From the NCBI GenBank assembly GCA_965250055.1, contig OZ252285.1, positions 2,599,767-2,663,766 of the forward strand: 64,000 bases of DNA, read 5' to 3'. The stretch comes from Phycisphaerales bacterium. GTDB lineage: Bacteria > Planctomycetota > Phycisphaerae > Phycisphaerales > UBA1924. This document shows positions 18,550 to 39,592 of this stretch, in pieces (within the stretch, counting starts at the first letter, position 1; the number at the start of each line of letters is the position of its first letter). The notes beneath the pieces were generated by a model that had not been told where the DNA came from, did not search any database, and saw nothing but the letters and a program-made list of their open reading frames with translations. The position numbers and the translations under genes are program-made.

Positions 18550-18720
18550 TCAGGGACATCCCGCAGAGTACTGGCTCAGATATGCGGAAACATCGAGGAA
18601 GTTGAGCGTGCCGTCGTTTGTGAAATCGGCTACGGCGCTCATGCTGCTGTACGCAGAGATGAACATGCTCACATCAAGGAAGTTCAGCGATCCGCTCTGG
18701 TCAAGATCTGCATGGCTGCA
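18550..18720 (-). other. Dockerin-like double EF-hand module ending Cys-Pro-COOH (copy 1)
   Basis: 56 aa from the bracketing Cys to the terminal CP. Two D-x-x-x-x-G-x-L-N-F-L-D-V-S repeats. Confidence 0.8.
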
Positions 18721-19743
18721 GAACGCGGTGTTGAGGCGCGTCGCGGTGTCTTGCATGATCTCGGTGAGCTTGGGGTTGAGCAGGTCGTTGTTCCAGACTT
18801 CCATGTAGCGGACGCCAGAATCGATCGCGAGGTCGATCTCGCCTTGATATCCATCATCGCTGAAGCGTTCGGGGGTGTTGGTGTAGCTGTTGGCGACTTG
18901 GACCTCGGAATGGCTCTGTTTCGATGCGTCCTGGAGGATCTCGAACATGCCGGGATAGACATCAGTCGCGTTGTGGACCATCCACCACGCCGCGAGCACA
19001 CCGACTCGTCTGCCGTGCATTGCACGCGCATGGTTGTAGACCTCGATCGCAACCGCGTCGCTCCCGAGCACGGGGTGGACCTCGTGGGCGAGCGCGTGGT
19101 TCGGGAACGCTTGAACGAACGCGTCGATCGCGTTCTTCCACGAGTCGGCGTAGAGGGAATCGGTGTATCCGATGTTCATCCAGTTGATCGTGTCTGTCGG
19201 GGAGCGCGGGAGCTGCATCTCAAAGCCGTTAGAGCTGGAGTTGGTGATGTAGACGAGGGAGATGGTGTCCTCGTTTGCGTAGCGAGCGCCGAGCTGCTGG
19301 ACGAACTGAGACCATCGGCTCTGAAAGATGGTGTCCCAAGGAACGGGCATCTGTTCTGCTGAGTCATGGAACTGGTAGCTGAACATCTGGACTCCGAGCG
19401 ATTGGAGCCAGCTGGGTGCGACGAGTCCGTTGACCACAGCGAGTGAGACTTTGATGTCGTAGCTCTGCGCCGCTTGGATTTGTCCGTCGATGAGAGACCA
19501 GTCGTATACGCCTGGGCTGGTCTCGATATCTTCCCACGCGACGCGGACGAGCACGCCGTCTACGTGCTCAAGCTCTGCGATTGTGGGGACGACCGAGACC
19601 GATCCAGTGCTGGTGGTCGGAGGACAGCTGCAGTACAGCCCCATCGGTGTTTCATACCCGCCAGCGAGGGCTGGGAGCGTGGACAGAGCGATAACGATTG
19701 ATGATGAGAGACCCTTCATGGTTGTGCAACGACGATGGAGCAT
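18550..19743 (-). CDS. Secreted glycoside-hydrolase-like (TIM-barrel) protein with C-terminal Cys-bracketed double dockerin-like module
   Basis: Signal peptide. VLVRVAWEDIETSPGVYDWSLIDGQI and NGFEMQLP resemble GH42/GH5-type barrels, a weak by-eye call. The tail is CSHADLDQSGSLNFLDVSMFISAYSSMSAVADFTNDGTLNFLDVSAYLSQYSAGCP*. Confidence 0.8.
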   Translation of the reverse strand: MLHRRCTTMKGLSSSIVIALSTLPALAGGYETPMGLYCSCPPTTSTGSVSVVPTIAELEHVDGVLVRVAWEDIETSPGVYDWSLIDGQIQAAQSYDIKVSLAVVNGLVAPSWLQSLGVQMFSYQFHDSAEQMPVPWDTIFQSRWSQFVQQLGARYANEDTISLVYITNSSSNGFEMQLPRSPTDTINWMNIGYTDSLYADSWKNAIDAFVQAFPNHALAHEVHPVLGSDAVAIEVYNHARAMHGRRVGVLAAWWMVHNATDVYPGMFEILQDASKQSHSEVQVANSYTNTPERFSDDGYQGEIDLAIDSGVRYMEVWNNDLLNPKLTEIMQDTATRLNTAFCSHADLDQSGSLNFLDVSMFISAYSSMSAVADFTNDGTLNFLDVSAYLSQYSAGCP

Positions 19744-19756
19744 GGGTATTGCCGCT

Positions 19757-19843
19757 TTACGGGCACCCTGATGAATATTGACTCAGGTACTCGGAGATGT
19801 CGAGGAAGTTGAGTCGGCCGTCGTTGTTGATGTCCGCGATGCA
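19757..19843 (-). other. Half-size (single-repeat) dockerin-like module ending Cys-Pro-COOH (copy 2)
   Basis: 28 aa from Cys to CP with only one EF-hand-like loop. Confidence 0.8.
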
Positions 19844-21037: not shown

Positions 21038-21154
21038 CTCGTCTCTTCCATTCTGATACGGACCAATCTCAGTATACAGAAAGCCCCACGAATCACGAGG
21101 GATAACCTGATAGATCACAGGCAATTCGACGCGGACAGATGAGTTGGGTATGGA

Positions 21155-21826
21155 TTAGCGGACGAAGCGCTGTGTGAGCACATCGAGGATGTTCCCGAAC
21201 ACGCTATCGGGTTTCCCAGCGGCGTCAACGCGGAGGTAGCGCTGCTGATCTGGATCAGACGCGATCAGGTCCTGGTATCCCTGGCGGACCTTCGCGTGGA
21301 ACGCGGCGCCCTTCGCTTCCATGCGATCGAGGAGCGGATTGAGGCGCGACGCAGCGGTGTCTTGATCGACATCGAAGATCAGGGTCGCGTCGGGGTGCGT
21401 GTCTTGCATCGCGATTTTGGCGGCAGCGTCGATCTCAGCGGTGGGGATGCCGCCGGCGGTGCCTTGATACGCGTAGGTGGAGGAAACGAAGCGGTCGGCG
21501 ATGACGAGCTTGCCTTGCGTGAGCGCCGGCGCGATGACCTGCTCGCAGAGCTGGGCGCGGGACGCCATGTAGAGGAGCATCTCGCAGCGGAGGGACATGG
21601 TCTCGCGGTCGAGGTGGTCGAGGAGCGCGTCGCGGATCTTCTCGCCGACTTCTGTTCCGCCTGGTTCACGGACTTCGGTGACCTCGATCCCGGCGCCTCG
21701 GACGGCTTTGAGGAACATCGCGAGTTGGGTGGACTTTCCAGAGCCGTCGGGACCATCGAAGACGAGGAACTTGCCTCGGAGGGCGCTGACAAGGGCTTCC
21801 GGGAGTTCGTGTGGTGGGGTGGTCAT
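21155..21826 (-). CDS. tmk: dTMP (thymidylate) kinase
   Basis: FLVFDGPDGSGKSTQ P-loop, DRF motif (ADRFVSSTYAYQG) and lid region. Start taken at MTTPPHEL; the upstream part of the track ORF overlaps the preceding gene. Confidence 0.9.
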   Translation of the reverse strand: MTTPPHELPEALVSALRGKFLVFDGPDGSGKSTQLAMFLKAVRGAGIEVTEVREPGGTEVGEKIRDALLDHLDRETMSLRCEMLLYMASRAQLCEQVIAPALTQGKLVIADRFVSSTYAYQGTAGGIPTAEIDAAAKIAMQDTHPDATLIFDVDQDTAASRLNPLLDRMEAKGAAFHAKVRQGYQDLIASDPDQQRYLRVDAAGKPDSVFGNILDVLTQRFVR

Positions 21827-21858
21827 GACTTCAACGGCTTGGAAGGTGGTTTGTACGC

Positions 21859-24525
21859 TCACGGCTGTGAGTGTAGCGTGTTTTGTGCTTGGATGAGGCG
21901 CGATCGGAAGGGTTCTGGGCCGAGTTTTGGATTCATGAGTTTGAGACGCGTGAGGTGTGCTCGCGCGTTGTCTTGGTCGCTCTCGTTTCCTGATGTGATG
22001 GTGGTTTCGATGATGAGAGTCCACGCGTGCCAGAAGTGTTTGGAGTCGTTGTTGTTGAGAGCGCTTGCGAGTTGTGTGAGTCGCTGGAGCGCCACGTCAG
22101 GTTGACCAGCACCAATGAGGGCGCGTGCGTAGAGCAGCTCGAGCTCGGGATCGGACGCATCGACCGAGTTGTGCACAAGACGAGCGAGACGCGTCATCGC
22201 CGAGGAGGGGTTAGTGTCAATCTCCAGCGCCGCGGCGGTGCGGTGCCAGTGAGTCGAGAGGGGCGAGCGGAGCGCATCGAGAACGCTCGCGGTGTCGATC
22301 GCGTGCTGGAGGGGGTTCGCTTGACGCTTGGTCAGTGCGTTGTTGTGGAGGATCTGAGCGCCGAGGTCCGATTCACGCGTCGCAGGGGTGAGCGAGCGGA
22401 TGAGGGACTCTTGTTCCTGTCCAGCCGTGAGTTTGATGAGCTGGAGCTTCCAGAGGTCGATCTCGATACGATCGGGGTAGGTGTTGATCGCTTGGCGCAG
22501 CAGCGGGGTGATGAGCGGGGATTTGGATGCGGACGCCGTGTCGATCGCTCCGGCGAGCGCGTCGGCGGCTCCGGGATGCGACGGGAAACGATCAGCGAGC
22601 TTGGACGCGGCTTCGATCAGGACCTTCCCGGCGTCGCGCGTGTTGAGCGCTCGAGCGCCGAGGCACGCGAGCCACAGGGAATCCTCGGCGAGGTCTTGGT
22701 CATCGGCGCGGGAGATTGTCAGGAGTGTGTTGATCGCTTCTTGTCGAGCATTGGGATCAGAGCTTGTGAGCCGAGCGCGAGCGTCGATGAAGCGGACGAT
22801 CGCTGGGAGGAGGTTGGTCTTGCTCTGTGAGGTTGGATCGGCGCGGAGCTCATCAACGAGGGCCGCGATCGAGCGGTCAACCAGCGGCTCAAGCTCGGGG
22901 ATCAACGCGCGGAGTCTCAGGAGCGGATCAAACGCGATGAGCGGATCGGTATGCAAGAGTGACCACGACCGCGTCTGTGCCGCGAGGAGTGTCCACGCGG
23001 GATCGGTTGTGAATGGCGGGGTATCAAGCAGCTGCGAATCGGGTTCTTGATGCATCGCGATCGCGAGCACGGCACTCGCCGCCGTGAGATCGGTAACTCC
23101 AAGCTGGGCGCGTTCACTGAGCAGCGCTCGAAGCGAATCGATGTTTGCAGCACTCGACGAGTCCTCAGCGAGCAGCGCCAGCAGCACACGGCGGCGCGCG
23201 TCAAGCTCCGGAGAGACGAAAACCGATTCGCTCAGGGTGCTGTGGATATTCTGAATAAGTCTTGGGTCGCTGAACTGATCGCTGCTGAGCAGCGATGCCT
23301 CGGCGATGAGCAGCGCTGCGCGAGGGTCTTGGGTGTCCGCGTCTTCGAGGAGTTGGTTGATGCGCCGGAGCGCTTCGTTTGCTTTGGACTGGTCATCGTC
23401 AATCGGGAACGCGTAGAGGGTTCGGTAGTACACGCCGGATGCTTTGAGCGCAACGATCTGGTCTTCAGCAGCACTGAGACGTGCGTCGGCGCTTGTTGGT
23501 GGTGGGGGGAGTGGTTCTGGATCAGGGTTGGCGAGCTGGTTGTAGGTGATGACCTGGTGGTCGTTGTGTCCGTCGCCGTGGAAGACACCGATGGTGCGCA
23601 TGATCCCGGTGGGGTCCTCATCGAGGAGTTGGATGGTCTTGATGACGACGGGGCGTGTTCCCGCGACAGGATCGAGCGGGTTGAGCTCGTCGAGGCGTTG
23701 GCGGACGTGCTTGAGTCCGCCGGCCCATGGCGCTTCGGTGCGCTGGATCCCGCGCGAGATGAGCAGGATCATGTCGGGGTTGAGCTCGATCGCGGCCGCG
23801 AGTCCGTCGATGGGGTTGGACTGTCCACGCGCGGGCATCGTCGCGAGCCAATCCGCGACGGCTTTCTTGTTCTCGCGCGTGGCGCGTGGGAGCTTGTTAC
23901 GCGACGTCTGCAGCTCTGGGGTTGCAAACGTCGAGTCGTCGAGCTTGCGGAACGCGATGACCTGGAACCGCTGGGTGGGGCTGAGCCGATCGATCGACTG
24001 GAGCAAGCGCTCGCGGATGTAGCTCAGCGAAGTCAGCGTCGCGCCGGAGGTGTCGATGACGTACACAATCGAGCGCGCCGCTCCGGTCGATACTCCAGCA
24101 AAGCTGATGGGAGACGGCGCGGAACTGGGTTCAGCGGAGAGCGCGGAGGATTGCTTGCTCAGCTGCTCGAGCGTCGCGGCGCTCATTGCTTGGGAGGTGA
24201 CTGGGGTCGGCGTTGAGAGTGCTTTGGCGCTGCGATCGAGCACGCTGGGCGCGGATTGCGTGACCTGCTCAGGTTCGGGAGTCTGGTTCTGAGCGGTGCT
24301 GTTCTGTGCGGGATCGTCTTGTGATTGGTCTGAGGGAGGTGATGCTGCGATCGGAGCGGAGTACTCGAGCTCAGCGAGCGGGAGCTTGGTCTTTTTCTCG
24401 TTTGTTTGCGTAAGCGTGGCGGCGCGCGAGCCGACGATGACGAGCAGAGCGATGAGGGAGGTGTGGACAGCGATCGACACGCCCGGAGGGAGGGCCCATC
24501 TCAGGATTGAAGCGTTTCGAGGCAC
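21859..24525 (-). CDS. Large membrane-anchored VWA-domain protein with helical-repeat (TPR-like) C-terminal half
   Basis: N-terminal TM (VSIAVHTSLIALLVIVG) and a Pro/Ser/Gln-rich linker. VWA-like block IVYVIDTSGATL...RFQVIAFR with an imperfect MIDAS (D-T-S-G-A). The rest is long and alpha-helical. Confidence 0.7.
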   Translation of the reverse strand: MPRNASILRWALPPGVSIAVHTSLIALLVIVGSRAATLTQTNEKKTKLPLAELEYSAPIAASPPSDQSQDDPAQNSTAQNQTPEPEQVTQSAPSVLDRSAKALSTPTPVTSQAMSAATLEQLSKQSSALSAEPSSAPSPISFAGVSTGAARSIVYVIDTSGATLTSLSYIRERLLQSIDRLSPTQRFQVIAFRKLDDSTFATPELQTSRNKLPRATRENKKAVADWLATMPARGQSNPIDGLAAAIELNPDMILLISRGIQRTEAPWAGGLKHVRQRLDELNPLDPVAGTRPVVIKTIQLLDEDPTGIMRTIGVFHGDGHNDHQVITYNQLANPDPEPLPPPPTSADARLSAAEDQIVALKASGVYYRTLYAFPIDDDQSKANEALRRINQLLEDADTQDPRAALLIAEASLLSSDQFSDPRLIQNIHSTLSESVFVSPELDARRRVLLALLAEDSSSAANIDSLRALLSERAQLGVTDLTAASAVLAIAMHQEPDSQLLDTPPFTTDPAWTLLAAQTRSWSLLHTDPLIAFDPLLRLRALIPELEPLVDRSIAALVDELRADPTSQSKTNLLPAIVRFIDARARLTSSDPNARQEAINTLLTISRADDQDLAEDSLWLACLGARALNTRDAGKVLIEAASKLADRFPSHPGAADALAGAIDTASASKSPLITPLLRQAINTYPDRIEIDLWKLQLIKLTAGQEQESLIRSLTPATRESDLGAQILHNNALTKRQANPLQHAIDTASVLDALRSPLSTHWHRTAAALEIDTNPSSAMTRLARLVHNSVDASDPELELLYARALIGAGQPDVALQRLTQLASALNNNDSKHFWHAWTLIIETTITSGNESDQDNARAHLTRLKLMNPKLGPEPFRSRLIQAQNTLHSQP

Positions 24526-24565
24526 GATCTATTCTAGTGGTTGGTCTGGTCTTGAGGCAGAGTCT

Positions 24566-25869: not shown

Positions 25870-25878
25870 TTGAACATA

Positions 25879-25934: not shown

Positions 25935-26102
25935 TTACGGACAGCTTTGTCCGTAGCTCGCGAGGAACGCGGAGATGTCGAGGAAGTTGAAGTTCCCGTC
26001 GTTGTTGACGTCCGCGATGGGGTCCATGTCGCCGTAGAGACCAAGGAAGAGGGAGACGTCGAGGAAGTTGAGACCTCCGGAGAAGTCGAAGTCGGTGTCG
26101 CA
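25935..26102 (-). other. Dockerin-like double EF-hand module ending Cys-Pro-COOH (copy 3)
   Basis: 55 aa from Cys to the terminal CP. Confidence 0.85.
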
Positions 26103-29084
26103 GACCGCGCCGATTCGGATCTCGTCTTCGAAGTATCCGACCTTGTAGCTCAGGCGTGGGTCGCCGGTCGCTGGAGCGATGAAGGTGTCGAACGTTCCGG
26201 TGACTCCTGCATCAGCAGTGACGATGGTCACGACCCACGAGGTCTCGGGATCGAACCCCTCGATGAGCGAGAGGTCGAGCGTGCCGTCGGCGTGAAAGGT
26301 CGAGGAGGAGTCGATGAGGTCACTCGTTCCAAAGTCCGAGACTTCGACCTCGTAGACGCTGGAGTCTGAGAGGGTGATGGGTTGGCTCGCTTCGAGTTCT
26401 CCGACGGAGAGTCCCGGCGCGATGGTGCCGTCCATGTTGAGCGGCGCGTTGATCTGACCACGTCCAGAGAGTGTTTGGTCCGCTCCGATGGTGAGTCCGG
26501 CGCCAGTGATCTGTGATCTGTTTGTGGTCCCGGTAAGTCGGATCTCACCCATGCCGTCGATAGTTGCTGGGGCGGCTGAGGTGACTGCGGTTGCGAATCC
26601 ACTGTTCGTTGGGTTGATGTTGATCGTGTTGTGATTGGTGACGGTGCCCACGATAGCGAGGTTTACACCCGGGTTAATAGTGACTGGTGAAAGATTGGTC
26701 ATATCCTGGAACGTCGAGATTCCGGAGTTGAGTAATGTGGACCCACCGGCGAGCGCGTCCATCGTGCCGCCGTTGATCGTGGCGCTGGTGAGTGTGACCA
26801 AGCCGTCGTTGTTGAGGATCTGACCTCCTCCGGTTTGATCGATCTCGATGCTTGAGACCTGCAGTCCTTCGGCTGGGTTCACCTGGATCAGTGTGTTATT
26901 GATCTTGTTGTTTGATTGGAGCGTGAGTGTTCCGGTGGTCGATTCGATGAGTCCGTTGTTGATCAGCGAGGCGTTGATCTGACCGAATCCCTGAACGGTG
27001 TGCGATGCGCCGATTGTGACGGTTTCGCCCGCTGCGGTGTTGAGCTGTGAGCGATTTGTCGTCCCCATGAGCCGTGTTGTTCCGGTTCCTCCGAGTGTGG
27101 TTGAATCGTTGAACTGGAGAATTGTGATGAAGCCGGCGTTGGACGGGTTGATGGAGATGATGTCGTTACTCATCAAGCCGTTGGTGATCCCGATCGTGGT
27201 TCCGGGGTTGAGGTTCAGTGGCGCGTTGAGTGTGAGTTGATCAAAGTTGGTTGCGCCTGATGATTGCGTGACCACACCGCTCGCGGCATTGATTGTTCCG
27301 TTGTTTATGTTCACTGATGAAAGCGTCAGTGTGCCGTCGCCAACATTGATCTGCGCTGCAGGGTCTTGATCGAGCGTGATTGTTGAGATGGTGATGTTTG
27401 CTCCGGGTTGTATGGAGATTGTGCTGTTGTTCACCTTGTCGTTGCTCAGCAAGCTCAGTGTCTGACCGCTGGTGTCAGCGTCGATCGTTCCGTTGTTGAT
27501 CAGCGATGCATGGATCTGTCCGAATCCTCGGATGACATGACCAGACGCGAGTCCAAGGGTTTCTCCGGCTCCGGTTGTGATCTGTGATCTGTTTCCGGTT
27601 CCACGCAACAATGTTTGTCCTGATCCTGACAGGACTGTGGATGCTGGGAAACTGAGGGTGGTCACGAATCCCGCGTTGGTAGGGTTGATGGTGAGATCGT
27701 CGTTGTTGATAAGCGTGTTGGTTGCTACGAGCGCCACGCCGGGATTGATGTTGAGCGGCGAGTTGAGCACGACGCTGTCAAAGTTGTTTGTCCCTGCGGT
27801 GAGGTTTGTGGCGCCAGTTGTCGCATTGATCACCCCATCGTTGATTGTGGAAGAGCTGATGTTGAGGGTGCCGTTGTCGATATTGAACTGCCCGCCCCCG
27901 GTTTGATCAACAGTGATGCTCGAGATATTCATGATCGCGTTGTTGGTGATCTCGAAGATGTTGTTGTTGACTTTGTTGTTCGTGCTCAACAGCAAGATCT
28001 GTCCCGCTACGTCGGCACTCACCACGCCGTTGTTGATCAGTGGGGCTTGGATGGTGCCTATCCCGCGGATCGTGTGTGTAGATGCTTGTGTGAGTGTGTG
28101 AGAGGGATCAGAGGTCCGGAGATTTGATCTGGAACCAACTCCGTCGAGCGCGAGCGTCCCCGTGCCGTTGAGTGTTGATATGTTCTGGAACTCCGCGACG
28201 GTCACAAAGCCTGCATTGGTGGGGTTGATGCTCAGGTTCGCGTCGTTTGTCATCGTGTTGATGATCTGGAGCGTCACGCCGGGATTGACGATGCCGTTGC
28301 CCATTGCGTGGACATTGTTGAACGAGTTGGTGCCCCCTGTAAATGCCCAGTTTGATCCGGGCATGGACTGGATCGTCCCGTCCGCGATGCTGATCGTTGA
28401 CATGTTCAGTTGACCATCGTCAACGCTGATTTCCCCGCTCACGCCTTGTCCGATTGCGACGTTGTTCATGAACATAGTCGCGTTGTTCACGACTTCGATG
28501 CGATTGTTGTTTGTCCAGGTGCCGCTCAGGATATCGAGTGTGAGTCCGTTGAGATTAGCGCTGACAGTTCCGTCGTTGAGGAAGTCCCCGACGATGCGTC
28601 CGAAGCCGTTCACGGTGTGATCGGTTCCGTGTGATACGGTGGCTCCTGCTCCTGAGACCAATGAAGCACGAGTACCGAATCCATTGAGCGTGAGCGCCCC
28701 GGTTCCTGTGAGTGTCGCGGAGTTATTGAAAGTGACGCTGGTGGTGAACCCACCGCTGGAGTTGTTCACAAGGACAGTGCCGTTGTTGACCATGCCGCCT
28801 TGGAGTCCGATTGCTCTCCCTGCGTCCATGCTGAGTGTGCATCCAGTGTCTTGGATATCTACTGAACCAAGTCCCGGCACGGAGATGTTGAGGGTTGCGG
28901 TGTAGGTCCCTCCGATGTTGAACTCCGCGGTCTCGGTGCCCATGCTCGGGACGCTCATCGGAGACCAGTTGGTTGGAACGTTCCATAAACCACCAGCGGG
29001 ATTGACCCAGTCGATGTTCTGTCCGAGTGCGGTGCCTGCGAGTAAAAAGACGGCGAGTGTTGATTTGGTCATTGGGGTGTTCAT
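25935..29084 (-). CDS. Giant secreted Asn/Thr/Gly-rich beta-helix-type repeat protein (1049 aa) with C-terminal dockerin-like module
   Basis: SD GGAGAG and a signal peptide ending ALGQ. N-terminal W..P.GG.W....NW.P motif. Five ~180-aa units anchored on NPTNAGF (aa 112, 292, 472, 652, 830). A GTIAPGLSVGEL...TFHADGTLDL...GF block precedes the tail. The tail is CDTDFDFSGGLNFLDVSLFLGLYGDMDPIADVNNDGNFNFLDISAFLASYGQSCP*. Confidence 0.9.
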   Translation of the reverse strand: MNTPMTKSTLAVFLLAGTALGQNIDWVNPAGGLWNVPTNWSPMSVPSMGTETAEFNIGGTYTATLNISVPGLGSVDIQDTGCTLSMDAGRAIGLQGGMVNNGTVLVNNSSGGFTTSVTFNNSATLTGTGALTLNGFGTRASLVSGAGATVSHGTDHTVNGFGRIVGDFLNDGTVSANLNGLTLDILSGTWTNNNRIEVVNNATMFMNNVAIGQGVSGEISVDDGQLNMSTISIADGTIQSMPGSNWAFTGGTNSFNNVHAMGNGIVNPGVTLQIINTMTNDANLSINPTNAGFVTVAEFQNISTLNGTGTLALDGVGSRSNLRTSDPSHTLTQASTHTIRGIGTIQAPLINNGVVSADVAGQILLLSTNNKVNNNIFEITNNAIMNISSITVDQTGGGQFNIDNGTLNISSSTINDGVINATTGATNLTAGTNNFDSVVLNSPLNINPGVALVATNTLINNDDLTINPTNAGFVTTLSFPASTVLSGSGQTLLRGTGNRSQITTGAGETLGLASGHVIRGFGQIHASLINNGTIDADTSGQTLSLLSNDKVNNSTISIQPGANITISTITLDQDPAAQINVGDGTLTLSSVNINNGTINAASGVVTQSSGATNFDQLTLNAPLNLNPGTTIGITNGLMSNDIISINPSNAGFITILQFNDSTTLGGTGTTRLMGTTNRSQLNTAAGETVTIGASHTVQGFGQINASLINNGLIESTTGTLTLQSNNKINNTLIQVNPAEGLQVSSIEIDQTGGGQILNNDGLVTLTSATINGGTMDALAGGSTLLNSGISTFQDMTNLSPVTINPGVNLAIVGTVTNHNTININPTNSGFATAVTSAAPATIDGMGEIRLTGTTNRSQITGAGLTIGADQTLSGRGQINAPLNMDGTIAPGLSVGELEASQPITLSDSSVYEVEVSDFGTSDLIDSSSTFHADGTLDLSLIEGFDPETSWVVTIVTADAGVTGTFDTFIAPATGDPRLSYKVGYFEDEIRIGAVCDTDFDFSGGLNFLDVSLFLGLYGDMDPIADVNNDGNFNFLDISAFLASYGQSCP
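26415..28787 (-). repeat. In-frame array of ~540-nt (about 180-aa) repeat units, about 4.5 copies
   Basis: Recurring I-N-P-T-N-A/S-G-F ... L-x-G-T-G ... R-S-Q/N-L/I ... H-T-I/V-x-G-F/I-G-x-I ... L-I-N-N-G anchors at a constant spacing of 178-180 aa. Confidence 0.8.
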
Positions 29085-29251: not shown

Positions 29252-29419
29252 TTACGGGCAGCTCTGGCCGTAGCTTGCGAGGAACGCGGAGATGTCGAGG
29301 AAGTTGAAGTTCCCGTCGTTGTTGATATCCGCGATCGGATTCATCTCGCCGTAGAGAGCTAGGAAGAGGGAGACATCGAGGAAGTTGAGTCCTCCTGAGA
29401 AGTCGAAGTCTGTATCGCA
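29252..29419 (-). other. Dockerin-like double EF-hand module ending Cys-Pro-COOH (copy 4)
   Basis: CDTDFDFSGGLNFLDVSLFLALYGEMNPIADINNDGNFNFLDISAFLASYGQSCP*. Confidence 0.85.
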
Positions 29420-31882
29420 GACCGCGCCGACGCGGATCTCGTCCTCGAAGTATCCGATCTTGTAACTCAGTCTTGGATCCGCAGCAGCGGGTGCGATGAG
29501 TGTGTCGAATGTTCCTGTGACTCCGCCGTCAGCCGTGACGATGGTGACGACCCATGATTCTGTTGGAGTGAATCCATCGATGAGCGTGAGGTCGAGCGTG
29601 CCGTCGGCGTGGAAGGTCGATCCAGAGTCGATGACATCATGGCTCGACAGTCCTCCAACCTCGATCTCAAGAACGCTTGAATCTCCCAGCGTGATCGGGC
29701 TGGTTGCATTGAGGATCCCTGCGGAGAGTCCCGGCGCGATGGTGCCGTGATTGACCATCGGGGTCGCGATGCGTCCGATCCCAGTGATGGTGTGGTCCGC
29801 GCTGTTGGTGAAGACCTCCGTGCCTGTGACGCTGGTGATCTGGGCGCGTGTGGTCAATCCGCTGAGATTGAGCTCGCCTGGTCCTTCGATGGTTAGGTCG
29901 TTCTGGATCTCCAGCGATGTGACAGCGGCTCCGTTGGTTGGGTTCAGATCAAGCACCGAGTTGTTGGTGTGTGTGCCGCTGAGTTCGAGTGTCCGTCCCG
30001 GCTCGACAACAACCGATGCATTGTTGATAACGCTGGTCAATCGGCTTGTGCCTCCCTGGACATTGAATACGCCCGTGCCGCTGGATTCGATCGAACCTCC
30101 GGTGATGATGGTATTCTGGAGTTCAACCTCGCCGTCATCTGCGGTGATCTTTGCGCCTAGAGCTTGGGTTACACTCGAATCGGTACTGAGTTCGAGGGTC
30201 GCACCGTTGGTGGACTGGATTGTATTGTTGTTCTGAATTTCGTAGTCATCGACGAGGAGCTCTTGTCCCGAGAAATCAGCGATGATCTGTCCCTCGTTGA
30301 TCATGGGCGCGTTGATGCGTCCGAAGCCGTGGATGGTGTGATTGGCGCCGTTGGTAATCACGAAGGTAGTCGGGAGCACCGAGAGGATTTGAGCTCTGGT
30401 TGAAAAACCATTGAGTGTTACTGATCCAGTACCATTCAGTGATCCTGAATCCATGAAGCGCAGGTTCGTTTGGGCAGCACCGTTGGTTGGGTTGATGAGG
30501 ATGTTGCCGTTGTTGGTGATGGAGTTGCGGATCTGCAGCGCGTCGCCGACTGAGACATTGAACTGGGCTTCATTGGTGACCCCGCGGAGCTCAGTGACGA
30601 AGACAACCTCGTGGATACCTGAGCCGCTGGTGAGGGTGCCGCCTTCGATCTCTGGTCCGTTGTAGACGATGTTGCTGGTGTTGGCCGCGAGCACGCCCCC
30701 TCCGGTCTGGTCGAGGGTGAAGTTGTTGATTTCAAGTGTGCCGCCGTCTGCGGACATGATGCCGTTGTTTGTTTTGTTTTCACCGGAGTTGAGCAGCGTG
30801 TTTCCGGGGTTGTTGGCGGTGATCGTGCCGTTGTTGACCAGGGAACCAAAGATGCGTCCGAACCCCTCGAGGGTGTGGTTGGTGTCGTTGGTGAGGGTGC
30901 CCCCTCCGGCGGTGGTGATCTGGGCGCGTGTGGTGAAGCCGTTGAGTGTGACCTTGCCCGGCCCGGTCAGCAGGACGTTGTTGTCGGCGTCGAGAGTCGT
31001 AACCGCGGCTCCGTTTGCCGGATTGACCAAGATCGTACCGTTGTTGGTGATGGTGTCCGAGAGGTTAAGGGTCCGCGACACCGCGACCTGGACATCGCCG
31101 TTGATGGTGAGGTCGTCAAGTGTCGGAGAGCCGTCGGAGACGACCACGCCGCCGTTGATTCCTTCGATGCTGCCGCCGGAGATTGATGTTTGATGCATCG
31201 ACACAGTGCCGCCGTCGGCGCGGACGACGCCGGCTGGGCTTTGGGTGATGATGAGATCGACGAAGTTGAGATCGAGGATCCCGTTGTTGGTGGCGCCGAT
31301 GACGCTGTTGTTGGTGATGTTCCCGAATCGGAAGTCGAGGGTGTTGAACGGATTGTCCGCTTGGATGGTACCGTTGTTGATGAAGTCACCGAAGATCTGT
31401 CCGTAGCCGTGGATCGTGTGACCGGCGCCGTGCGTGACTGTCGATCCTGATTCAGCGATCAAGCGTGATCGAGTCGAGAGTCCGTTGAGGAGGATGTCTC
31501 CCGTGCCGCTGATGGTTGCGGAGTCTCTCCAGAAGAGCGAGGTTTGTGCGGCTCCTGAAGTGGTGTTGACAACGTAGGTCCCGCTGTTGTCGAAGTTGCC
31601 GAAGAGTTCGTGCTGACGGCTGAGATTCAACGCGATCGTTGCGCTGGGGTTGTTGTTGGTGATGTCATCGGTGTCGAAGTTGCCGCTGATTGTGATGGTG
31701 TATGTCCCGTTGTTGGGGATGACCGCGTCGCTGGTCATCGTGGTCGGTGCGCTCACGGGCGTCCAGTTGGTGGGTACAGACCAGAACCCATCGGTCGTCA
31801 GGTTCCAGGTTGATGTTTGTGCGAGTCCGGCGCTGGTGATCAGCGTGAGCGCGGATACGGCGGCGAGTGTTTTGGTGTGCAT
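29252..31882 (-). CDS. Paralogous giant secreted beta-helix-type repeat protein (876 aa) with C-terminal dockerin-like module
   Basis: SD GGGAGAGAG and a signal peptide ending GLAQ. Same N-terminal W....G.W..PTNW.P motif. Four ~180-aa units anchored on N-P-x-N-G-A-A (aa 110, 291, 468, 651). The last ~165 aa are nearly the same as in the 1049-aa paralog. Confidence 0.9.
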   Translation of the reverse strand: MHTKTLAAVSALTLITSAGLAQTSTWNLTTDGFWSVPTNWTPVSAPTTMTSDAVIPNNGTYTITISGNFDTDDITNNNPSATIALNLSRQHELFGNFDNSGTYVVNTTSGAAQTSLFWRDSATISGTGDILLNGLSTRSRLIAESGSTVTHGAGHTIHGYGQIFGDFINNGTIQADNPFNTLDFRFGNITNNSVIGATNNGILDLNFVDLIITQSPAGVVRADGGTVSMHQTSISGGSIEGINGGVVVSDGSPTLDDLTINGDVQVAVSRTLNLSDTITNNGTILVNPANGAAVTTLDADNNVLLTGPGKVTLNGFTTRAQITTAGGGTLTNDTNHTLEGFGRIFGSLVNNGTITANNPGNTLLNSGENKTNNGIMSADGGTLEINNFTLDQTGGGVLAANTSNIVYNGPEIEGGTLTSGSGIHEVVFVTELRGVTNEAQFNVSVGDALQIRNSITNNGNILINPTNGAAQTNLRFMDSGSLNGTGSVTLNGFSTRAQILSVLPTTFVITNGANHTIHGFGRINAPMINEGQIIADFSGQELLVDDYEIQNNNTIQSTNGATLELSTDSSVTQALGAKITADDGEVELQNTIITGGSIESSGTGVFNVQGGTSRLTSVINNASVVVEPGRTLELSGTHTNNSVLDLNPTNGAAVTSLEIQNDLTIEGPGELNLSGLTTRAQITSVTGTEVFTNSADHTITGIGRIATPMVNHGTIAPGLSAGILNATSPITLGDSSVLEIEVGGLSSHDVIDSGSTFHADGTLDLTLIDGFTPTESWVVTIVTADGGVTGTFDTLIAPAAADPRLSYKIGYFEDEIRVGAVCDTDFDFSGGLNFLDVSLFLALYGEMNPIADINNDGNFNFLDISAFLASYGQSCP
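29738..31585 (-). repeat. In-frame array of ~540-nt (about 180-aa) repeat units, about 3.5 copies
   Basis: Anchors NTTSGAA / NPANGAA / NPTNGAA / NPTNGAA spaced 177-183 aa apart, each followed by L-x-G-x-G ... TRAQI ... H-T-x-x-G-x-G-R-I. Confidence 0.8.
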
Positions 31883-32044: not shown

Positions 32045-32212
32045 TTACGGGCAGCCGTTCCCGAATGCGGAGAGGAACGCCGAGACGTCGAGGAAGTTGA
32101 AGCTCCCCTCCCCCGTGAAGTCCGCGGCGGGGTCTTGGTTCCCGAACGCCGCGAGGAACGCGGAGACATCGAGGAAGTTCAGGTTGCCGTCAGCAGTGAA
32201 GTCCGCTGGACA
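32045..32212 (-). other. Dockerin-like double EF-hand module ending Cys-Pro-COOH (copy 5)
   Basis: 55 aa from Cys to the terminal CP. Confidence 0.85.
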
Positions 32213-34327
32213 CGGATTGCTCACATCCTCGCAGGAGACCAGTTCGACCTGCACCGCATCGACCGCGGCTTCGACAACCGAACCCTCGCCGGTATCACCG
32301 GCACGGAAGCGGATGCGGACCTGGTCCGATGGGGACGTGAAGATCTGGGAGAGGTCGAAGGAGTACTCGTTCCATCCGCCTCCTGCTGCTGGATCACCCG
32401 GACCGATGGTGTCGAGGGATTGCCAGTTGCCTCCATTGTTGTTGGAGATGTCGATGAAGATGGTGTCGTCAACCTCTCCAACATTATTTGAGTACCACAG
32501 TGCGTAGGAGAGCATCGGGATGCCTTCGCCTGTCGCGTCCATTGCTGGTGAGGTGAGGGTGGTGGTGCCGCCGTCAACGTCTGAGTTTCCTGCGACGTTG
32601 TCTGTGAGGTAGCAACGACCCGATCCGTCGTAGTCGGTCACGGGATCGCCGCGTCCGCCGCCGCCGGCTGGGATGCCGCGTTCCCACGCGCCGTCTGACA
32701 CGGAACCAGAGACGGACCATCCCATGTTGGATTCGAAGTTGTCCGCGAAGAGTTCTTCGAAGTCTGACGCGACACTCGCGGTGAACACGTTTGATGGTGC
32801 GTCAGCTGGGAGTGTCTTGACTACGCCATCGCTGTCGGTGACTCTGAAGAAGTACTGCAATGTTTGGCCACACTCAATAGCCGGCGACATTGCGGTCCAT
32901 GATCCATCTGGGTTCGGAGACAGGAAGTCTGCGACAAATCCTTGTCCATCAACATCAAAGAACGCGTGGACTGTTTCGAATGACGTGCCGTCGCGTGTGA
33001 TGATGTTGACGCTGATCGGATCACCACCTGCAGGGCTGACCGTGCTCGGCATGTCATCGCGTTGTTGGAGCGCGAAGCCGTCGAGGTCTGCATCCAGACG
33101 GAGCAGGAAGAGTCCGCGCTCGATATCCGAGACCGCGATGGTTCCCGATGGGAAGAAGGGGTAGCTCGACCACGCGCCGTTAAAGCTCGCGGCGTCTGAA
33201 CCTGGGTAGCTATCGAAGTACGCGATCTCGACGGGGTTGGTCGGATCAAGTCCATCAAACACACGCAGACCAGAGCGGTAGTTCGCTTGGTAGATCACGT
33301 AATCGCGTGTGTACAGGTTGTGGTCGATCGCGGCTTTGCCCGTGGTGTATGTTCCAACGAATGTAGGATTCGCAGGATCCTCAACATTGATCACACGCGT
33401 CGTCGTGACGGAAACGGTTGATCCCTCGTCGAGCTCGTCGTTGAGGTAGAGGAACTTGCGATCGGTTGAGAGCCAAGCTTGGTGTGAGTATCCAGCGTTG
33501 GGGTAGAACAGCGTCGAGATGGTGACGGGGTTGTTTGGATCGGTGACGTCCGCGATGCGGAGTCCTGTTTCAGAGAATCCTCCTGAGAACCCTGAACACA
33601 GGAACGCGAGCTCGCGTCCGGCGTACTCGCCGTCTTGCCAGGTGACGACCTGCGCATCGTGGACATACATCTCGGTCCATCCGCCGTCAAAGGATGGGAG
33701 CTCTGGGTTGGAGAGGTCGATGTGGACGAGCCCGCCGTTGCCGACGTTGGCGCCGACGATCCAGAGGGATCCGGTTTCTTCGTTCGCGACGATGTTGTGT
33801 GTCGTGGAGTATCCACCCGCGGTCCAGTTGCGGACGAGGGTGACATTGCCCGAGTCGATATTGGACATATCCATGACCTGGATGCCCGAGCCGCCTTCGG
33901 AGACGCCGTACGCGTACTCGCCCACGACCTTGACGTCGTGCCAGTCCGATCCTGGTCCGGTGACGGTATCGATGATGACGGGGCTCGTTGGGTTGGTGAC
34001 TTCTACGAATGCGAACCCACCGTAGACACCCATGATGACGTACTCGCGTCCCGATGGTGAGACGTATCCCCAGCAGTCGTTGCCGAAGGTGGAGTTGACG
34101 CCGACGAAGTTGTTGAGCGGGATCTGCGCCAGGAGGGTCATGTTCTGTGAGTCAAAGAGTCCACGCTGGACGTTGTCGGAATCCGCGGTCCAGATCGGTC
34201 CCATGACTGCGGACTGCTTGTCGAGCAGTTTGCGGTAGTCGTCATCGTGCGCGATCGCGGTTGATGAGACGCCGCAGGCGAGCGCGAGCGTGAGGGACAA
34301 TGATCGCCGGGAGGGCAGGTGACGCAT
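32045..34327 (-). CDS. Secreted choice-of-anchor-B / LVIVD-repeat propeller protein + jelly-roll (MAM/LamG-like) domain + dockerin-like module
   Basis: Start at MRHLPSRRSLSLTLALACG (signal peptide). NDCWGYVSPSGREYVIMG...VEVTNPTSP...WHDVKVVGEYAYGVSEGGSGIQVMDMSN matches the choice-of-anchor-B/LVIVD pattern. The tail is CPADFTADGNLNFLDVSAFLAAFGNQDPAADFTGEGSFNFLDVSAFLSAFGNGCP*. Confidence 0.85.
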   Translation of the reverse strand: MRHLPSRRSLSLTLALACGVSSTAIAHDDDYRKLLDKQSAVMGPIWTADSDNVQRGLFDSQNMTLLAQIPLNNFVGVNSTFGNDCWGYVSPSGREYVIMGVYGGFAFVEVTNPTSPVIIDTVTGPGSDWHDVKVVGEYAYGVSEGGSGIQVMDMSNIDSGNVTLVRNWTAGGYSTTHNIVANEETGSLWIVGANVGNGGLVHIDLSNPELPSFDGGWTEMYVHDAQVVTWQDGEYAGRELAFLCSGFSGGFSETGLRIADVTDPNNPVTISTLFYPNAGYSHQAWLSTDRKFLYLNDELDEGSTVSVTTTRVINVEDPANPTFVGTYTTGKAAIDHNLYTRDYVIYQANYRSGLRVFDGLDPTNPVEIAYFDSYPGSDAASFNGAWSSYPFFPSGTIAVSDIERGLFLLRLDADLDGFALQQRDDMPSTVSPAGGDPISVNIITRDGTSFETVHAFFDVDGQGFVADFLSPNPDGSWTAMSPAIECGQTLQYFFRVTDSDGVVKTLPADAPSNVFTASVASDFEELFADNFESNMGWSVSGSVSDGAWERGIPAGGGGRGDPVTDYDGSGRCYLTDNVAGNSDVDGGTTTLTSPAMDATGEGIPMLSYALWYSNNVGEVDDTIFIDISNNNGGNWQSLDTIGPGDPAAGGGWNEYSFDLSQIFTSPSDQVRIRFRAGDTGEGSVVEAAVDAVQVELVSCEDVSNPCPADFTADGNLNFLDVSAFLAAFGNQDPAADFTGEGSFNFLDVSAFLSAFGNGCP

Positions 34328-34513
34328 CGGAATTCCTTTCTGAAGTGCACAGCCAAGACCTGACCGGCGCACAAAGATACTGCAAAGTCCTCGAATGAGG
34401 CGGTATCCTATTCGAACAATCGACTTTCCCGGTTGCTTTTTTTGCTCAATTCGGGGATTCATTGCGATCTTTGTCTGTTTTTATCGTACCGAAACGGGAA
34501 CGGAGTAGCGCTG

Positions 34514-35428
34514 ATGATGCGATCTCGAAACATCTTGGGTCTTTGCTCAGCGCTGCTGCTCTGCGCCTCTGCGCACGGCGCGTCCGCACAGCCGCTAGAC
34601 CAAGAGTCCGAGTTGGATTCGGATTCCGGTACTGCAGAAACGACGCAATCAACACACCGCGGACTCCTGCTTGTTGATGACCAGATCAAACCCCAGATCG
34701 AGATCCGTTGGCAGACAACTTCTGGTGATCGTACGCTCTCGGGAACGCTCGGTTACACAGCACCCACGGGCGGGATCGTGCTCGAGGGAGCGGAGGATGA
34801 CGAGAATGTCCTCGCGTATCTCTCGCTCGGAGGCACGCGCGTCGAGACAGGCGCGGGACATCCCAAGGGGTTGGTGATCCGCGTTGGATTGACGAAGCGC
34901 GAGAACGCGCTGCCGTTCTTCGAGGACATCAAGCCGGGCGGAGAGATCGAGATCCATGTCGAGGGGGTCGTGGTTTCTGAGCCCGTCCAATATCACGTCG
35001 GCACAGGGATGATGCACCTCAAGTATGCGCTCGGAGATCTGATCGCATGCTCGCTTCCAGGATCAGCAAGGAATCAGTACCTGCTCTCAGACCCCAAAGA
35101 CACGCTCGGCGGCCGCGTCGTCGCGGGACTCAACGCGACTCCCGGCGCGCTCTCAGGTGAGGATGAATCGCTGGGGTCATTCGTGTTTCACTTCGATGAA
35201 GCAAACCCAACCACGCTCGGATTCACGGTCCGCATCCCGTATGGTCTGCTCCGTCACCTGCAGGACCCTTGGCAATCGACGCTTCCCAACACGTTCTTTG
35301 AACCGATCCACCTGCACGCGGAAGCGGAGGTGATCCCGGTTTGGGCCGAGCCGTTTGATCGGGAGTGGGAGCTTGAAAGCAACGAGCTGCGCGAACCCGA
35401 ATCTGAAGATGTCGAGAGCGACTCATGA
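34514..35428 (+). CDS. Hypothetical secreted beta-rich protein (no dockerin-like tail)
   Basis: Start at MMRSRNILGLCSALLLCASAHGASAQ (signal peptide). Acidic N- and C-terminal segments. No family recognised. It is the only plus-strand gene inside the dockerin-tail cluster apart from the deaminase. Confidence 0.65.
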   Translation: MMRSRNILGLCSALLLCASAHGASAQPLDQESELDSDSGTAETTQSTHRGLLLVDDQIKPQIEIRWQTTSGDRTLSGTLGYTAPTGGIVLEGAEDDENVLAYLSLGGTRVETGAGHPKGLVIRVGLTKRENALPFFEDIKPGGEIEIHVEGVVVSEPVQYHVGTGMMHLKYALGDLIACSLPGSARNQYLLSDPKDTLGGRVVAGLNATPGALSGEDESLGSFVFHFDEANPTTLGFTVRIPYGLLRHLQDPWQSTLPNTFFEPIHLHAEAEVIPVWAEPFDREWELESNELREPESEDVESDS

Positions 35429-35464
35429 ATCGCGTTGTGATCAGTGTTGTGATAGAGTGTGTGC

Positions 35465-35932: not shown

Positions 35933-35943
35933 CTGGTTATGGT

Positions 35944-36597
35944 TTATTCGACGGTGCCGTACATGCGATCACCCGCGTCTCCGAGACCCGGTACGATGTA
36001 GCCCTTCTCATTGAGGTGGTCATCGAGAGCCGCGGCATAGATCGTGACGTCGGGATGATCTTGCTGCAAACGCTCGACACCCTCCGGAGCCGCGACGAGA
36101 CAGATCATGCGGAGATCGGTCGCGCCCGCGTCCTTAAGCATGCTGATCGCGGCTGAGGCGCTGCCTCCAGTCGCGAGCATCGGGTCCACAAGAATCACAG
36201 GACCACTAGAGAGATCCTTTGGGAGCTTGTTGAGGTACGCGACGGGCTCGAGTGTCGATTCGTCACGCGCCATCCCGAGGTGTCCGACGCGTGCTTCAGG
36301 CATGACCTCGAGGATGCCGTCGATCATCCCGAGTCCGGCGCGGAGGACAGGAACAATGGTGACCGTCCCGGCGAGCTGATGTGCCGTTGTCTTGGTGACC
36401 GGCGTCTGGATCTCAACAGGGGTGGTTTTGAATGAACGCGTGACCTCGTAGACCATCAATCCCGCGATCTGTGAGAGCACGGCTCGGAAAGGACGGTGGG
36501 TCGTGGTCTGGTCGCGGATGGTGGTCATCTTGTGCGCGATGAGGGGGTGATCGAAGACGATGACTTTGGGGTTGGAGCTCGTGTGCGTGGTCGTCAT
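35944..36597 (-). CDS. upp: Uracil phosphoribosyltransferase
   Basis: FDHPLIAHKMTTIRD, the PRPP loop ILVDPMLATGGSA, and C-terminal YIVPGLGDAGDRMYGT. ATG at 36597 is preferred over the TTG at 36630. Confidence 0.92.
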   Translation of the reverse strand: MTTTHTSSNPKVIVFDHPLIAHKMTTIRDQTTTHRPFRAVLSQIAGLMVYEVTRSFKTTPVEIQTPVTKTTAHQLAGTVTIVPVLRAGLGMIDGILEVMPEARVGHLGMARDESTLEPVAYLNKLPKDLSSGPVILVDPMLATGGSASAAISMLKDAGATDLRMICLVAAPEGVERLQQDHPDVTIYAAALDDHLNEKGYIVPGLGDAGDRMYGTVE

Positions 36598-36631
36598 ATC
36601 CAAGTGTACGAAGCAGATCGGGAGCGGCAAT

Positions 36632-36664
36632 GAAAAAACCCCGAGACCTGTGAAGGTCCCGGGG
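36632..36664 (-). terminator. Rho-independent terminator of the 437-aa gene
   Basis: Minus strand reads CCCCGGGACC-TTCACA-GGTCTCGGGG (one mismatch) followed by TTTTTTC. Confidence 0.75.
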
Positions 36665-36710
36665 TCGAGATGTTCAAGTGTTCAATCGGGAGTGTCCCGA
36701 TGAAGCTCGA

Positions 36711-36878
36711 TTATGGGCAGCCTTCGCCGAATGCAGCGAGGAATGCGGACACATCGAGGAAGTTGAAGTCGCCTTCGCCGGTGAAGTCAGCCGATGGGTG
36801 GCTCTTACCGAATGCGTTGAGGAACGCGGAGACGTCGAGGAAGTTGAGATCGCCTTCGCCGGTGAAGTCCGCAGGGCA
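36711..36878 (-). other. Dockerin-like double EF-hand module ending Cys-Pro-COOH (copy 6)
   Basis: 55 aa from Cys to the terminal CP. Confidence 0.85.
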
Positions 36879-38024: not shown

Positions 38025-38152
38025 TTCTTTTCCTCCAGTGGGGATTTATGTGGTTGTGTTCAACCCAAGATTACAGGAATTATGGTGGAATTGGTAGGGT
38101 AATTCATCGGGAAATCCGAGAAAATTACCCTAACATATACAGACATTCTGAA

Positions 38153-38320
38153 TTATGGACATCCTTGTGCATAAGCCGAAAGGTACGCGCTGATGTCGAG
38201 GAAGTTGAACGAGCCGTTATCGTCCCAGTCCGCGGCGGGGTCCTCGTTACCAAACGAGGCAAGGAACGTGCTGATATCAAGGAAGTTCAGCGAGCCGTCC
38301 TCGAGCAGATCCGCTTCGCA
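38153..38320 (-). other. Dockerin-like double EF-hand module ending Cys-Pro-COOH (copy 7)
   Basis: 55 aa from Cys to the terminal CP. Confidence 0.85.
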
Positions 38321-39592
38321 CTCTTCCACAGTCAGATCACAGTTCGCGTCGTTCTCAAGGTAGGAAAGGATCCGCGTCTGGACGCGTTCGTGGAAGCGGA
38401 GGTCAATGTTGGACAGTCCGCCGGGGCAGAGGTGGCAGTAGGACATGATGGTCGAGTTGAGGCGCTGCGAGCAGTCGCCGTTCCCGCAGCCGTCGATGAC
38501 CGGGTTGTAGTCATCGTGGGTGTGTCCTGTCCCGAAGTTGTGTCCCATTTCGTGAGCCGCGACGATGACGTCCCAGTTGTTGTGGGAGTTGTCCTGAAGT
38601 GGATTGGGGAAGAACCCGTCGAGGTTGGCGCTGACGCCGATCCCCCAAAAGTCGTTGCACGCGGTCGCGAGCCATGCGACTCCGCCGCCGAGACTGCGAG
38701 CGCTGAGTCCCTGGACGACGGCGCGATCGATGTTCGCTTCATCTCCGGAGTTGAACTCGTCGCGGACGTCTTCGAGGAAGTCACCGATGTCGCTGCCGCC
38801 GTAGGGATCGTTGTTGGACGCGTAGGTGCGGAGGAACGGGACAGAGAGGGTCATGTTCACGTCACGGTTATAAATAGTCGAGATCGCGGCTAGCAGGGAG
38901 GACGCGTAGGACGCTGAAGCGGTGGTGTTGCCTCCAAAGAGCGAGTTGGTGAACTCGTAGTCTGTTTCCACAGCAACCTTCGCATCACGCTGGGGGACTG
39001 CTCCAAGCGGGATGTAGACGTCGCTGGTGCCCGTGAAATCTTGTGCTGGTTGGCGTCCCGATGGGAGGAAAGCCGGGTTGTTCATATCTACAGCACAGCT
39101 TTGACCAAACGCTTCGAGACCGAGTTGGTCCGATGGGGTGATCGCGAGATCCGCGAGGGTTTTCGCTTGCCCGTCGTACTTGCCAGTCGAGATGACGAAG
39201 CTGTTGTGCGCGATTTCAAGGTATCCCGAGGTGCCGAACTGGGTGATCGAGATGTACGCGATCTGGGAATCGTCCTCAGCGAGGTGTCCACGCAGGTGAA
39301 CGTCGGAGGAAAGGTCGATCGGATGCTCGATGCCTTTGGCATCAACAGAGACGATGCGAGCGCCTGGAGTGAACGGCGAGAAGCGTTCGAGCTCGAGCTC
39401 AACGCTCTGTCCGTCTTGGAGGGTGACCGCGAGCTCGACGATATCGCCGATGCGGACCTGCTGGAACGACTGGACGCTGGTCAGCGCGGCTTGGCTGGTC
39501 TCAGCGGTAAACGCATGGGCGTGGGGGGCAGCGAGCGCTGAAAGGTTCAGTGCAGACGCAGCAGCAATGGCAAGAAGGGACGTCGAACGCAT
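38153..39592 (-). CDS. Secreted metzincin (reprolysin/M12B-like) zinc metalloprotease with dockerin-like module
   Basis: SD GGAGAA and a signal peptide. HEMGHNFGTGHTHD equals the HExxHxxGxxH(D) zinc site. The tail is CEADLLEDGSLNFLDISTFLASFGNEDPAADWDDNGSFNFLDISAYLSAYAQGCP*. Confidence 0.88.
   Translation of the reverse strand: MRSTSLLAIAAASALNLSALAAPHAHAFTAETSQAALTSVQSFQQVRIGDIVELAVTLQDGQSVELELERFSPFTPGARIVSVDAKGIEHPIDLSSDVHLRGHLAEDDSQIAYISITQFGTSGYLEIAHNSFVISTGKYDGQAKTLADLAITPSDQLGLEAFGQSCAVDMNNPAFLPSGRQPAQDFTGTSDVYIPLGAVPQRDAKVAVETDYEFTNSLFGGNTTASASYASSLLAAISTIYNRDVNMTLSVPFLRTYASNNDPYGGSDIGDFLEDVRDEFNSGDEANIDRAVVQGLSARSLGGGVAWLATACNDFWGIGVSANLDGFFPNPLQDNSHNNWDVIVAAHEMGHNFGTGHTHDDYNPVIDGCGNGDCSQRLNSTIMSYCHLCPGGLSNIDLRFHERVQTRILSYLENDANCDLTVEECEADLLEDGSLNFLDISTFLASFGNEDPAADWDDNGSFNFLDISAYLSAYAQGCP

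Follow-up and report, generated by a model that had tools for sequence, protein, structure and literature searches.

Seven secreted proteins encoded in a 64-kb stretch of DNA (the window) from a marine-type member of the Phycisphaerales (Planctomycetota) end in one and the same C-terminal module. This tail belongs to NCBIfam family NF041540 ('GC-type dockerin domain-anchored protein') and, as judged by profile comparison, is a remote, compact homologue of the type I dockerins. It is very abundant in Phycisphaerales, where it marks a large share of the secretome. Since the tail is strongly enriched on signal-peptide proteins whose payloads are otherwise unrelated, its distribution argues for a shared receptor or sorting step.

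Carriers and family assignment

A preliminary description of the window, made from the sequence alone, had placed seven minus-strand genes with signal peptides at the coordinates listed below. All seven open reading frames (ORFs) are present there, and each opens with a Sec-type signal peptide (n-region, hydrophobic h-region and AxA-type site). The ORFs at 19757 and 32045 extend further upstream, and the ATGs proposed for them earlier stand immediately before the signal peptides. Every one of the seven proteins closes, at its extreme C terminus, with the Gly-Cys-Pro-type ending [GS]-C-P-stop, preceded by two repeats in six genes and by one repeat in the seventh. Measured from the upstream Cys to the C terminus, the module spans 55 aa in five of the proteins; the value is 56 aa for carrier 1 and 28 aa for carrier 2, exactly as first reported. 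When all six frames of the window were scanned for N[FILV][LF]D[VIL], 13 of the 14 matches proved to be tail repeats, all on the minus strand and all sitting exactly 12 or 39 residues ahead of a stop codon, a placement that is far beyond chance. The carriers and their tails are as follows.

18550-19743, minus strand: carrier 1, 397 aa, secreted; payload weakly GH42/GH35-like (Glyco_hydro_42, E 3.5e-6)
18553-18720, minus strand: GC-type dockerin of carrier 1, 56 aa from Cys to end, Cys at -56 and -2; NF041540 36.1 bits
19757-21037, minus strand: carrier 2, 426 aa, secreted; Ig domain
19760-19843, minus strand: tail of carrier 2, single repeat (half module), 28 aa, Cys at -28 and -2; no NF041540 match
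25935-29084, minus strand: carrier 3, 1049 aa; predicted beta-solenoid of a 179-aa repeat, autotransporter-passenger-like
25938-26102, minus strand: GC-type dockerin of carrier 3; NF041540 20.6 bits, under the cut-off
29252-31882, minus strand: carrier 4, 876-aa paralog of carrier 3
29255-29419, minus strand: GC-type dockerin of carrier 4; NF041540 20.8 bits, under the cut-off
32045-34327, minus strand: carrier 5, 760 aa; choice-of-anchor B (LVIVD-type), TIGR04312 334 bits
32048-32212, minus strand: GC-type dockerin of carrier 5; NF041540 40.9 bits
36711-38024, minus strand: carrier 6, 437 aa, secreted; payload without an assigned family
36714-36878, minus strand: GC-type dockerin of carrier 6, used for structure prediction; NF041540 41.6 bits
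38153-39592, minus strand: carrier 7, 479 aa; reprolysin-type (M12B) metalloprotease, Reprolysin_5 E 5.7e-22
38156-38320, minus strand: GC-type dockerin of carrier 7; NF041540 35.3 bits

NF041540 recognises six of the seven tails, four of them (35.3-41.6 bits) above its curated cut-off of 29 bits and the two giants, carriers 3 and 4, below it; the single-repeat tail of carrier 2 was not detected by this model. Among representatives of the 57 payload clusters described below, 55 matched (E<=1e-4). The model and the window tails have in common a C-terminal, duplicated calcium-loop/helix module ending in Gly-Cys(-Pro). At 55 aa the window tails are a compact subtype that lacks about 12 of the positions in the 67-position model. 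NCBI already applies the GC-type dockerin name to proteins of Phycisphaerales such as MDF1808909.1, so the label that the preliminary description had tentatively mentioned does exist. The name of NF041540 carries no function or partner, the term 'GC-type dockerin' appears in no paper of the searchable literature, and that literature, as had been supposed, describes no characterised partner and no experiment on the family. The window proteins thus add members to a family that is catalogued and uncharacterised; what is new here is the reasoning that leads to a disulfide clasp, the compact subtype, the half-module variant and a census of carriers. The novelty is accordingly lower than was first claimed, given that the NCBI model exists and that a dockerin-based 'planctosome' including M12B peptidases was proposed in 2019 (PMC6461901).

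MDF1808909.1 itself corresponds to a 54-aa ORF (L077:10001-10165, JARGPA010000007.1) without payload, signal peptide or N-terminal Cys, and is therefore probably the remnant of a gene; about 5-8 kb upstream of it are phage-like genes (SU10_MCP, SPP1_portal).

With the tails stripped, only the two giants resemble one another (33-38% protein identity of the payloads). Because these are paralogs, there are six unrelated kinds of payload rather than the seven first counted. The payload labels given earlier stood for choice-of-anchor B, reprolysin, the Ig domain, a weakly glycosidase-like protein and the beta-helix giants, and found no family match for the YWTD propeller and the jelly-roll. The giants' 179-aa repeat was modelled with AlphaFold2 (AF2) as an all-beta solenoid (predicted local distance difference test, pLDDT, 88.8), and its Foldseek neighbours were the autotransporter passengers TibA, Ag43, UpaB and Hbp, tailspikes and PL6 lyases; no cohesin was among the neighbours of this model. 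The giants were thus ruled out as cohesin scaffoldins, both being predicted solenoids and not cohesin arrays. They were also rejected as autotransporters: the passenger-like beta-helix passes straight into the GC-type dockerin, with no C-terminal barrel and no autotransporter Pfam match. Their tails, in contrast to these diverged payloads, share 90% nucleotide identity, a difference that points to gene conversion or to very strong selection acting on the tail. Separately, residues 10-13 of the carrier 6 signal peptide read L-A-A-C, a possible lipobox; carrier 6 could therefore be a lipoprotein besides bearing a dockerin tail.

Relation to type I dockerins and the cysteine pair

The preliminary description had called the module dockerin-like or EF-hand-like, and profile comparisons bear this out. 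The Pfam family matched most often by the tails was Dockerin_1 (14 of 73 at E<=0.01), followed by EF-hand_1 (6 of 73), and eight of the twelve weak sequence matches of the tail in the PDB were dockerins. When the tail was aligned by hhalign with three PDB-verified type I dockerins, the probability was 90% (E 1.6e-6), and both loop-helix repeats fell into register, the GC-type module being about 7 residues shorter between the repeats. Since this probability goes together with Pfam scores below threshold, we describe the tail as a remote homologue and not as a Pfam-defined member.

An AF2 model of the carrier 6 tail, built on a 73-sequence alignment (pLDDT 87.7; predicted template modelling score 0.74), places helices at residues 23-34 and 50-62, both predicted to begin at loop position 10 in the fashion of EF-hands. 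No helix precedes either loop in this model, so that the canonical EF-hand helix-loop-helix was not found. The best superposition was with the Clostridium cellulolyticum dockerin 2vn5_D (template modelling scores 0.50/0.56; root-mean-square deviation 2.9 A over 51 columns). A profile search for homologous proteins returned short fragments only and served as a multiple sequence alignment, not for the study of payloads.

In 153 tails of fixed register, the canonical pattern of calcium ligands (D/N at position 1, oxygen side chains at 3 and 5, Gly at 6, D/E at 12) was intact in 140 first loops and 135 second loops, or roughly 90%. Positions 8-20, [LF]-N-F-L-D-V-S-A-F-L-x-A-[FY], were nearly invariant and the same in both repeats, and conservation peaked on the duplicated helix face.

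The two Cys residues of the module are coupled. A Cys stands at -55 to -57 in 184 of the 194 tails that have a Cys at -2; over 405 modules, 385 had both, 12 had neither and 8 had one only, most of these eight being alignment offsets or fragments. Two residues ahead of the one preceding loop 1, the upstream Cys falls within the -3..-1 zone; in classical dockerins this zone and a C-terminal Pro together make the 'intramolecular clasp' (PMC3821032). In proteins from other metagenomes the module also occurs in 4-20 tandem copies (P0079, P0085, P0183, P0147, P0169, P0108 and P0143), and in three of them (P0079, P0085, P0183) each internal double repeat is flanked by a Cys pair of its own. We therefore think that the pair is probably an intramodule disulfide clasp. 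We prefer this to the lipidation or processing of the terminal Cys that had been suggested earlier, because the pair co-varies and because it brackets internal tandem units; such a clasp would explain the CP ending without C-terminal processing.

Several variants of this pattern were seen. One sub-clade (L054:12665-13831, L058:12641-13717 and P0054) ends in ...SSN-COOH; both clasp Cys residues have been lost jointly in it, and position 7 of its second calcium loop has become a Cys. The units examined in P0143 lack both Cys residues, and the C-terminal region of P0079 appears, by eye, to be peptidoglycan-binding-like. Both the L001 ortholog of carrier 2 and a distant homologue in L044 keep the single-repeat tail. 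Because a lone repeat cannot close the clasp on itself, we infer from the two-fold symmetry of the full module that the half module may form a homodimer with two reciprocal disulfides.

Distribution, cargo and the search for a receptor

A pattern scan over one genome per GTDB species gave 335 confirmed stretches, of which 80 were kept, all 80 from metagenome-assembled genomes (MAGs) of Phycisphaerales. Carriers were then counted with a hidden Markov model of the tail in 76 related loci (1.19 Mb) and the window, 1.25 Mb together. This census found 206 carriers whose payloads fall into 57 unrelated clusters. Among ORFs that run to a stop, 192 of 205 end precisely at the last residue of the module and 186 of 205 end in GCP. 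At least 157 of 186 complete carriers passed a crude signal-peptide test, and most of the others visibly have a signal peptide. The complete 2.9-Mb Phycisphaerales chromosome OZ246976.1, with which the window is syntenic at 86-93% nucleotide identity, holds at least 46 distinct carriers within the 260 kb sampled (about 9% of the chromosome). The cargo includes peptidases (M10, M12B and M64 metalloproteases, S8 subtilase), alpha-amylases, a haem peroxidase, CotH, Endonuclease I, MauG-like enzymes, an esterase, and LTD, FG-GAP and Kelch proteins. A HMMER search of 1.84 billion representatives returned 10,052 clusters at E<=1e-3 (1,655 at E<=1e-10); among 98 of the best clusters beta-propellers prevailed (FG-GAP_2 in 23, LVIVD in 13), and cluster look-ups returned no cultured organism. 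One window protein, looked up by exact sequence, was absent from the protein collection. In several families the tail occupies the place that other anchors hold in relatives: choice-of-anchor B proteins, a homologue of the MXAN_5453/MYXO-CTERM family, and barrel-less autotransporter-like beta-helices.

From these results we propose the following mechanism, which we consider the probable one, if by a modest measure. The signal peptide would take each carrier out via Sec. The tail, made up of two 27-residue 'F-hand' repeats (each a 12-residue EF-hand calcium loop and then a helix), would bind two Ca2+ ions and adopt an antiparallel two-helix fold with internal two-fold symmetry. This fold would bring Cys -55 and Cys -2 together to form a disulfide, a covalent form of the classical dockerin clasp. 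Through the nearly invariant duplicated face at positions 8-20, the unrelated exoproteins, dozens in each genome, would then all attach to a single receptor on the cell surface or within the matrix, so that proteases, amylases, a peroxidase, a nuclease, beta-propellers and beta-helix adhesins would share a tag for retention or display. That the carriers may be anchored to the cell in this way is supported by the swapping of anchors between relatives, by the conservation of the helix face, and by the conservation of the tail far above its cargo in the giant paralogs (90% nucleotide against 38% amino-acid identity). The common receptor or sorting step suggested in the preliminary description is favoured by the enrichment, and the anchoring that went with it stays conjectural.

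Several results weigh against this mechanism. Matches of the tails to Pfam stay below the gathering thresholds, both for Dockerin_1 (PF00404; at most 19.5 bits, threshold 22.9) and for the EF-hand families (PF00036/PF13499; at most 18.8 bits, against 25.4 for EF-hand_1, PF00036). Foldseek found no significant match of the tail model, a very small domain, in the PDB. The co-occurrence of the two Cys residues (Fisher p 9e-17) was counted over related sequences, so that its p value is inflated. Sorting signals, more than clostridial dockerins, typically stand strictly at the terminus, as this tail does. Finally, no receptor was found in the window, among the carriers or among their recurring neighbours (64 kb and 1.19 Mb of related DNA).

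The search for a partner covered the window, the carriers and the genes beside them. No cohesin, sortase or secretion gene lies in the 64-kb window, in agreement with the earlier remark on cohesins and sortases. The carriers' neighbours in it are housekeeping genes (PlsY, Tmk, DoxX, cytidine deaminase, UPRTase, NhaA, AstB, topoisomerase I, MetRS, Der, ClC and a beta-lactamase-fold protein). A cohesin was likewise absent from the listed top families of 155 carriers and from the recurrent neighbours in the related DNA, and no sortase was seen among carriers or recurring beside them. The secreted non-carriers that recur near carriers are one-per-genome orthologs, such as PBP4-like, pseudopilin-like and binding-protein-like genes, and no recurrent, multi-copy family of secreted non-carriers was found beside carriers in the sampled loci. 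Around P0053 and P0046 the neighbouring genes were all of housekeeping, phage-like or LVIVD type. One candidate receptor was set aside: the 331-aa secreted protein at 34433-35428 (plus strand), which sits between two carriers, has no Pfam or other family match and no PDB match, and is kept only at the syntenic position in the MAGs L066 and L059.

Other ORFs of the window are listed for completeness. The product of 21859-24525 (minus strand; 888 aa) has an N-terminal hydrophobic segment and no Pfam match, and is 94% identical in L001, the related chromosome. The tmk ORF at 21155-22024 (GTG start) overlaps it by 166 nt; its Thymidylate_kin match begins at residue 89, and the true tmk start is therefore probably downstream. 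Two further proteins, at 13786-15516 (plus strand; 576 aa) and 57713-59515 (minus strand; 600 aa), have no Pfam match, and the first is conserved in L001, L002 and L003.

The failure to detect a cohesin, in the window or in the listed families of 155 carriers, is what would be expected if the module had no dedicated protein receptor and were instead a calcium-dependent stabilising, matrix- or polysaccharide-binding, or self-associating domain that retains exoenzymes on particles or within the glycan layer of the cell itself. Proteins that consist of tandem modules exist, one of them with a peptidoglycan-binding-like C terminus, and Peer et al. reportedly found dockerin-like modules without cohesins in many genomes in 2009. 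However, the helix face is nearly invariant over 57 unrelated payloads from several species, which exceeds what folding usually needs and resembles the conservation of cohesin-recognition residues within a species. The cohesin search, moreover, covered about 5% of the relevant genomes. We regard a module without a receptor as unlikely, if a serious contender.

The position of the module at the last residue of 192 of 205 ORFs, its invariant GCP-COOH ending and its presence on nearly the whole range of exoprotein types would also suit a C-terminal signal, possibly removed later, for an outer-membrane translocation or processing machine such as one related to the type IX secretion system (T9SS), with its C-terminal domain (CTD), or to the type II secretion system; the tail replaces other C-terminal sorting tags on homologous payloads. 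Yet the Cys-bracketed unit also occurs internally, in arrays of 4-20 copies, which is not expected of a terminal signal. The tail has neither the hydrophobic helix and basic tail of PEP-CTERM and LPXTG proteins nor the beta-sandwich of a T9SS CTD: it runs to GCP without a hydrophobic segment, unlike a sortase or exosortase signal, and is modelled as a 55-aa, two-helix, predicted calcium-binding fold. As no sorting enzyme was linked to the carriers in the window or at sampled loci either, we think such a signal improbable.

A covalent modification or attachment at the penultimate Cys (lipidation, a thioether or thioester, or an intermolecular disulfide to a surface protein) would account for the invariant Cys-Pro-COOH ending, and the two Cys of the single-repeat tail cannot easily pair within one chain, so that our own model involves intermolecular disulfides to that extent; but the terminal Cys is lost jointly with its partner 53 residues upstream, internal tandem units keep the pair, and no modifying enzyme is linked to the carriers in the window, and we reject lipidation or processing on the first two grounds and give the idea as a whole hardly any weight.

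Carried to its furthest point, the docking mechanism would describe a large surface-display system of Phycisphaerales, cohesin-less or with very divergent cohesins, in which the exoenzymes and adhesins of each genome, by the dozen, attach to a single receptor via a disulfide-locked, calcium-dependent mini-dockerin, and in which half modules are obligate disulfide-linked homodimers that rebuild the two-fold docking unit. Taken whole, this picture is speculative and we would not expect all of it to hold.

Comparison with known systems

Clostridial type I dockerins (PF00404; C. thermocellum Xyn10B, 1OHZ_B; C. cellulolyticum, 2VN5) and the GC-type tail alike consist of two duplicated F-hand segments, each a 12-residue EF-hand loop ending in Asp and then a helix. 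Both have internal two-fold symmetry, usually stand at the C terminus of secreted enzymes, and bring their N- and C-termini together in a clasp with a C-terminal Pro, as far as can be judged for the tail. In contrast to the type I dockerins, the GC-type tail is about 7 residues shorter between its repeats and lacks the middle helix in our model; its recognition positions are hydrophobic (F-L) instead of Ser-Thr; and its clasp is probably a disulfide instead of a stacking or ionic contact. It also stands strictly at the last residue, in a diderm planctomycete and with no cohesin identified, unlike its clostridial counterpart.

Cohesins do occur in Phycisphaerae: Limihaloglobus sulfuriphilus has a scaffoldin with two of them (PMC11557425), and dbCAN cohesins were reported for Nemodlikiaceae (CL500-3, Phycisphaerae; PMC6461901). 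For the latter, Andrei et al. (2019) proposed in silico a cohesin-dockerin 'planctosome', a cell-surface assembly for non-cellulolytic degradation, on the basis of dbCAN and InterProScan calls (0-1 cohesins and 1-6 dockerins per MAG) and of three proteins of one MAG (PMC6461901). The planctosome and the window share Phycisphaerae exoproteins with dockerin modules, including M12B reprolysin-like peptidases. They differ in that we find dozens of carriers per genome and no cohesin in the sampled DNA; our tails are of the GC subtype, which the planctosome dockerins may or may not share.

In the sea and in lakes, Phycisphaerales are abundant as degraders associated with particles. Knowledge of the binding target of the tail would explain how their proteases, amylases, nucleases and adhesins are retained at the surface, would put the published and unproven planctosome idea to the test, and would bear on an old question, the role of non-cellulosomal dockerins where no cohesin is evident. 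If the mechanism is right, a 55-residue, disulfide-stapled and calcium-switchable docking tag would also be a useful part for protein engineering.

The closest parallel in distribution is with the 'choice-of-anchor' tags of Haft (PEP-CTERM, MYXO-CTERM, LPXTG and the T9SS CTD). Like these, the GC-type tail is a lineage-specific tag at the extreme C terminus of many unrelated secreted proteins, on payload families that bear other anchors elsewhere. Unlike them, it has no transmembrane helix or sortase-type motif, and is instead a folded, predicted calcium-binding domain that also occurs internally, in tandem arrays.

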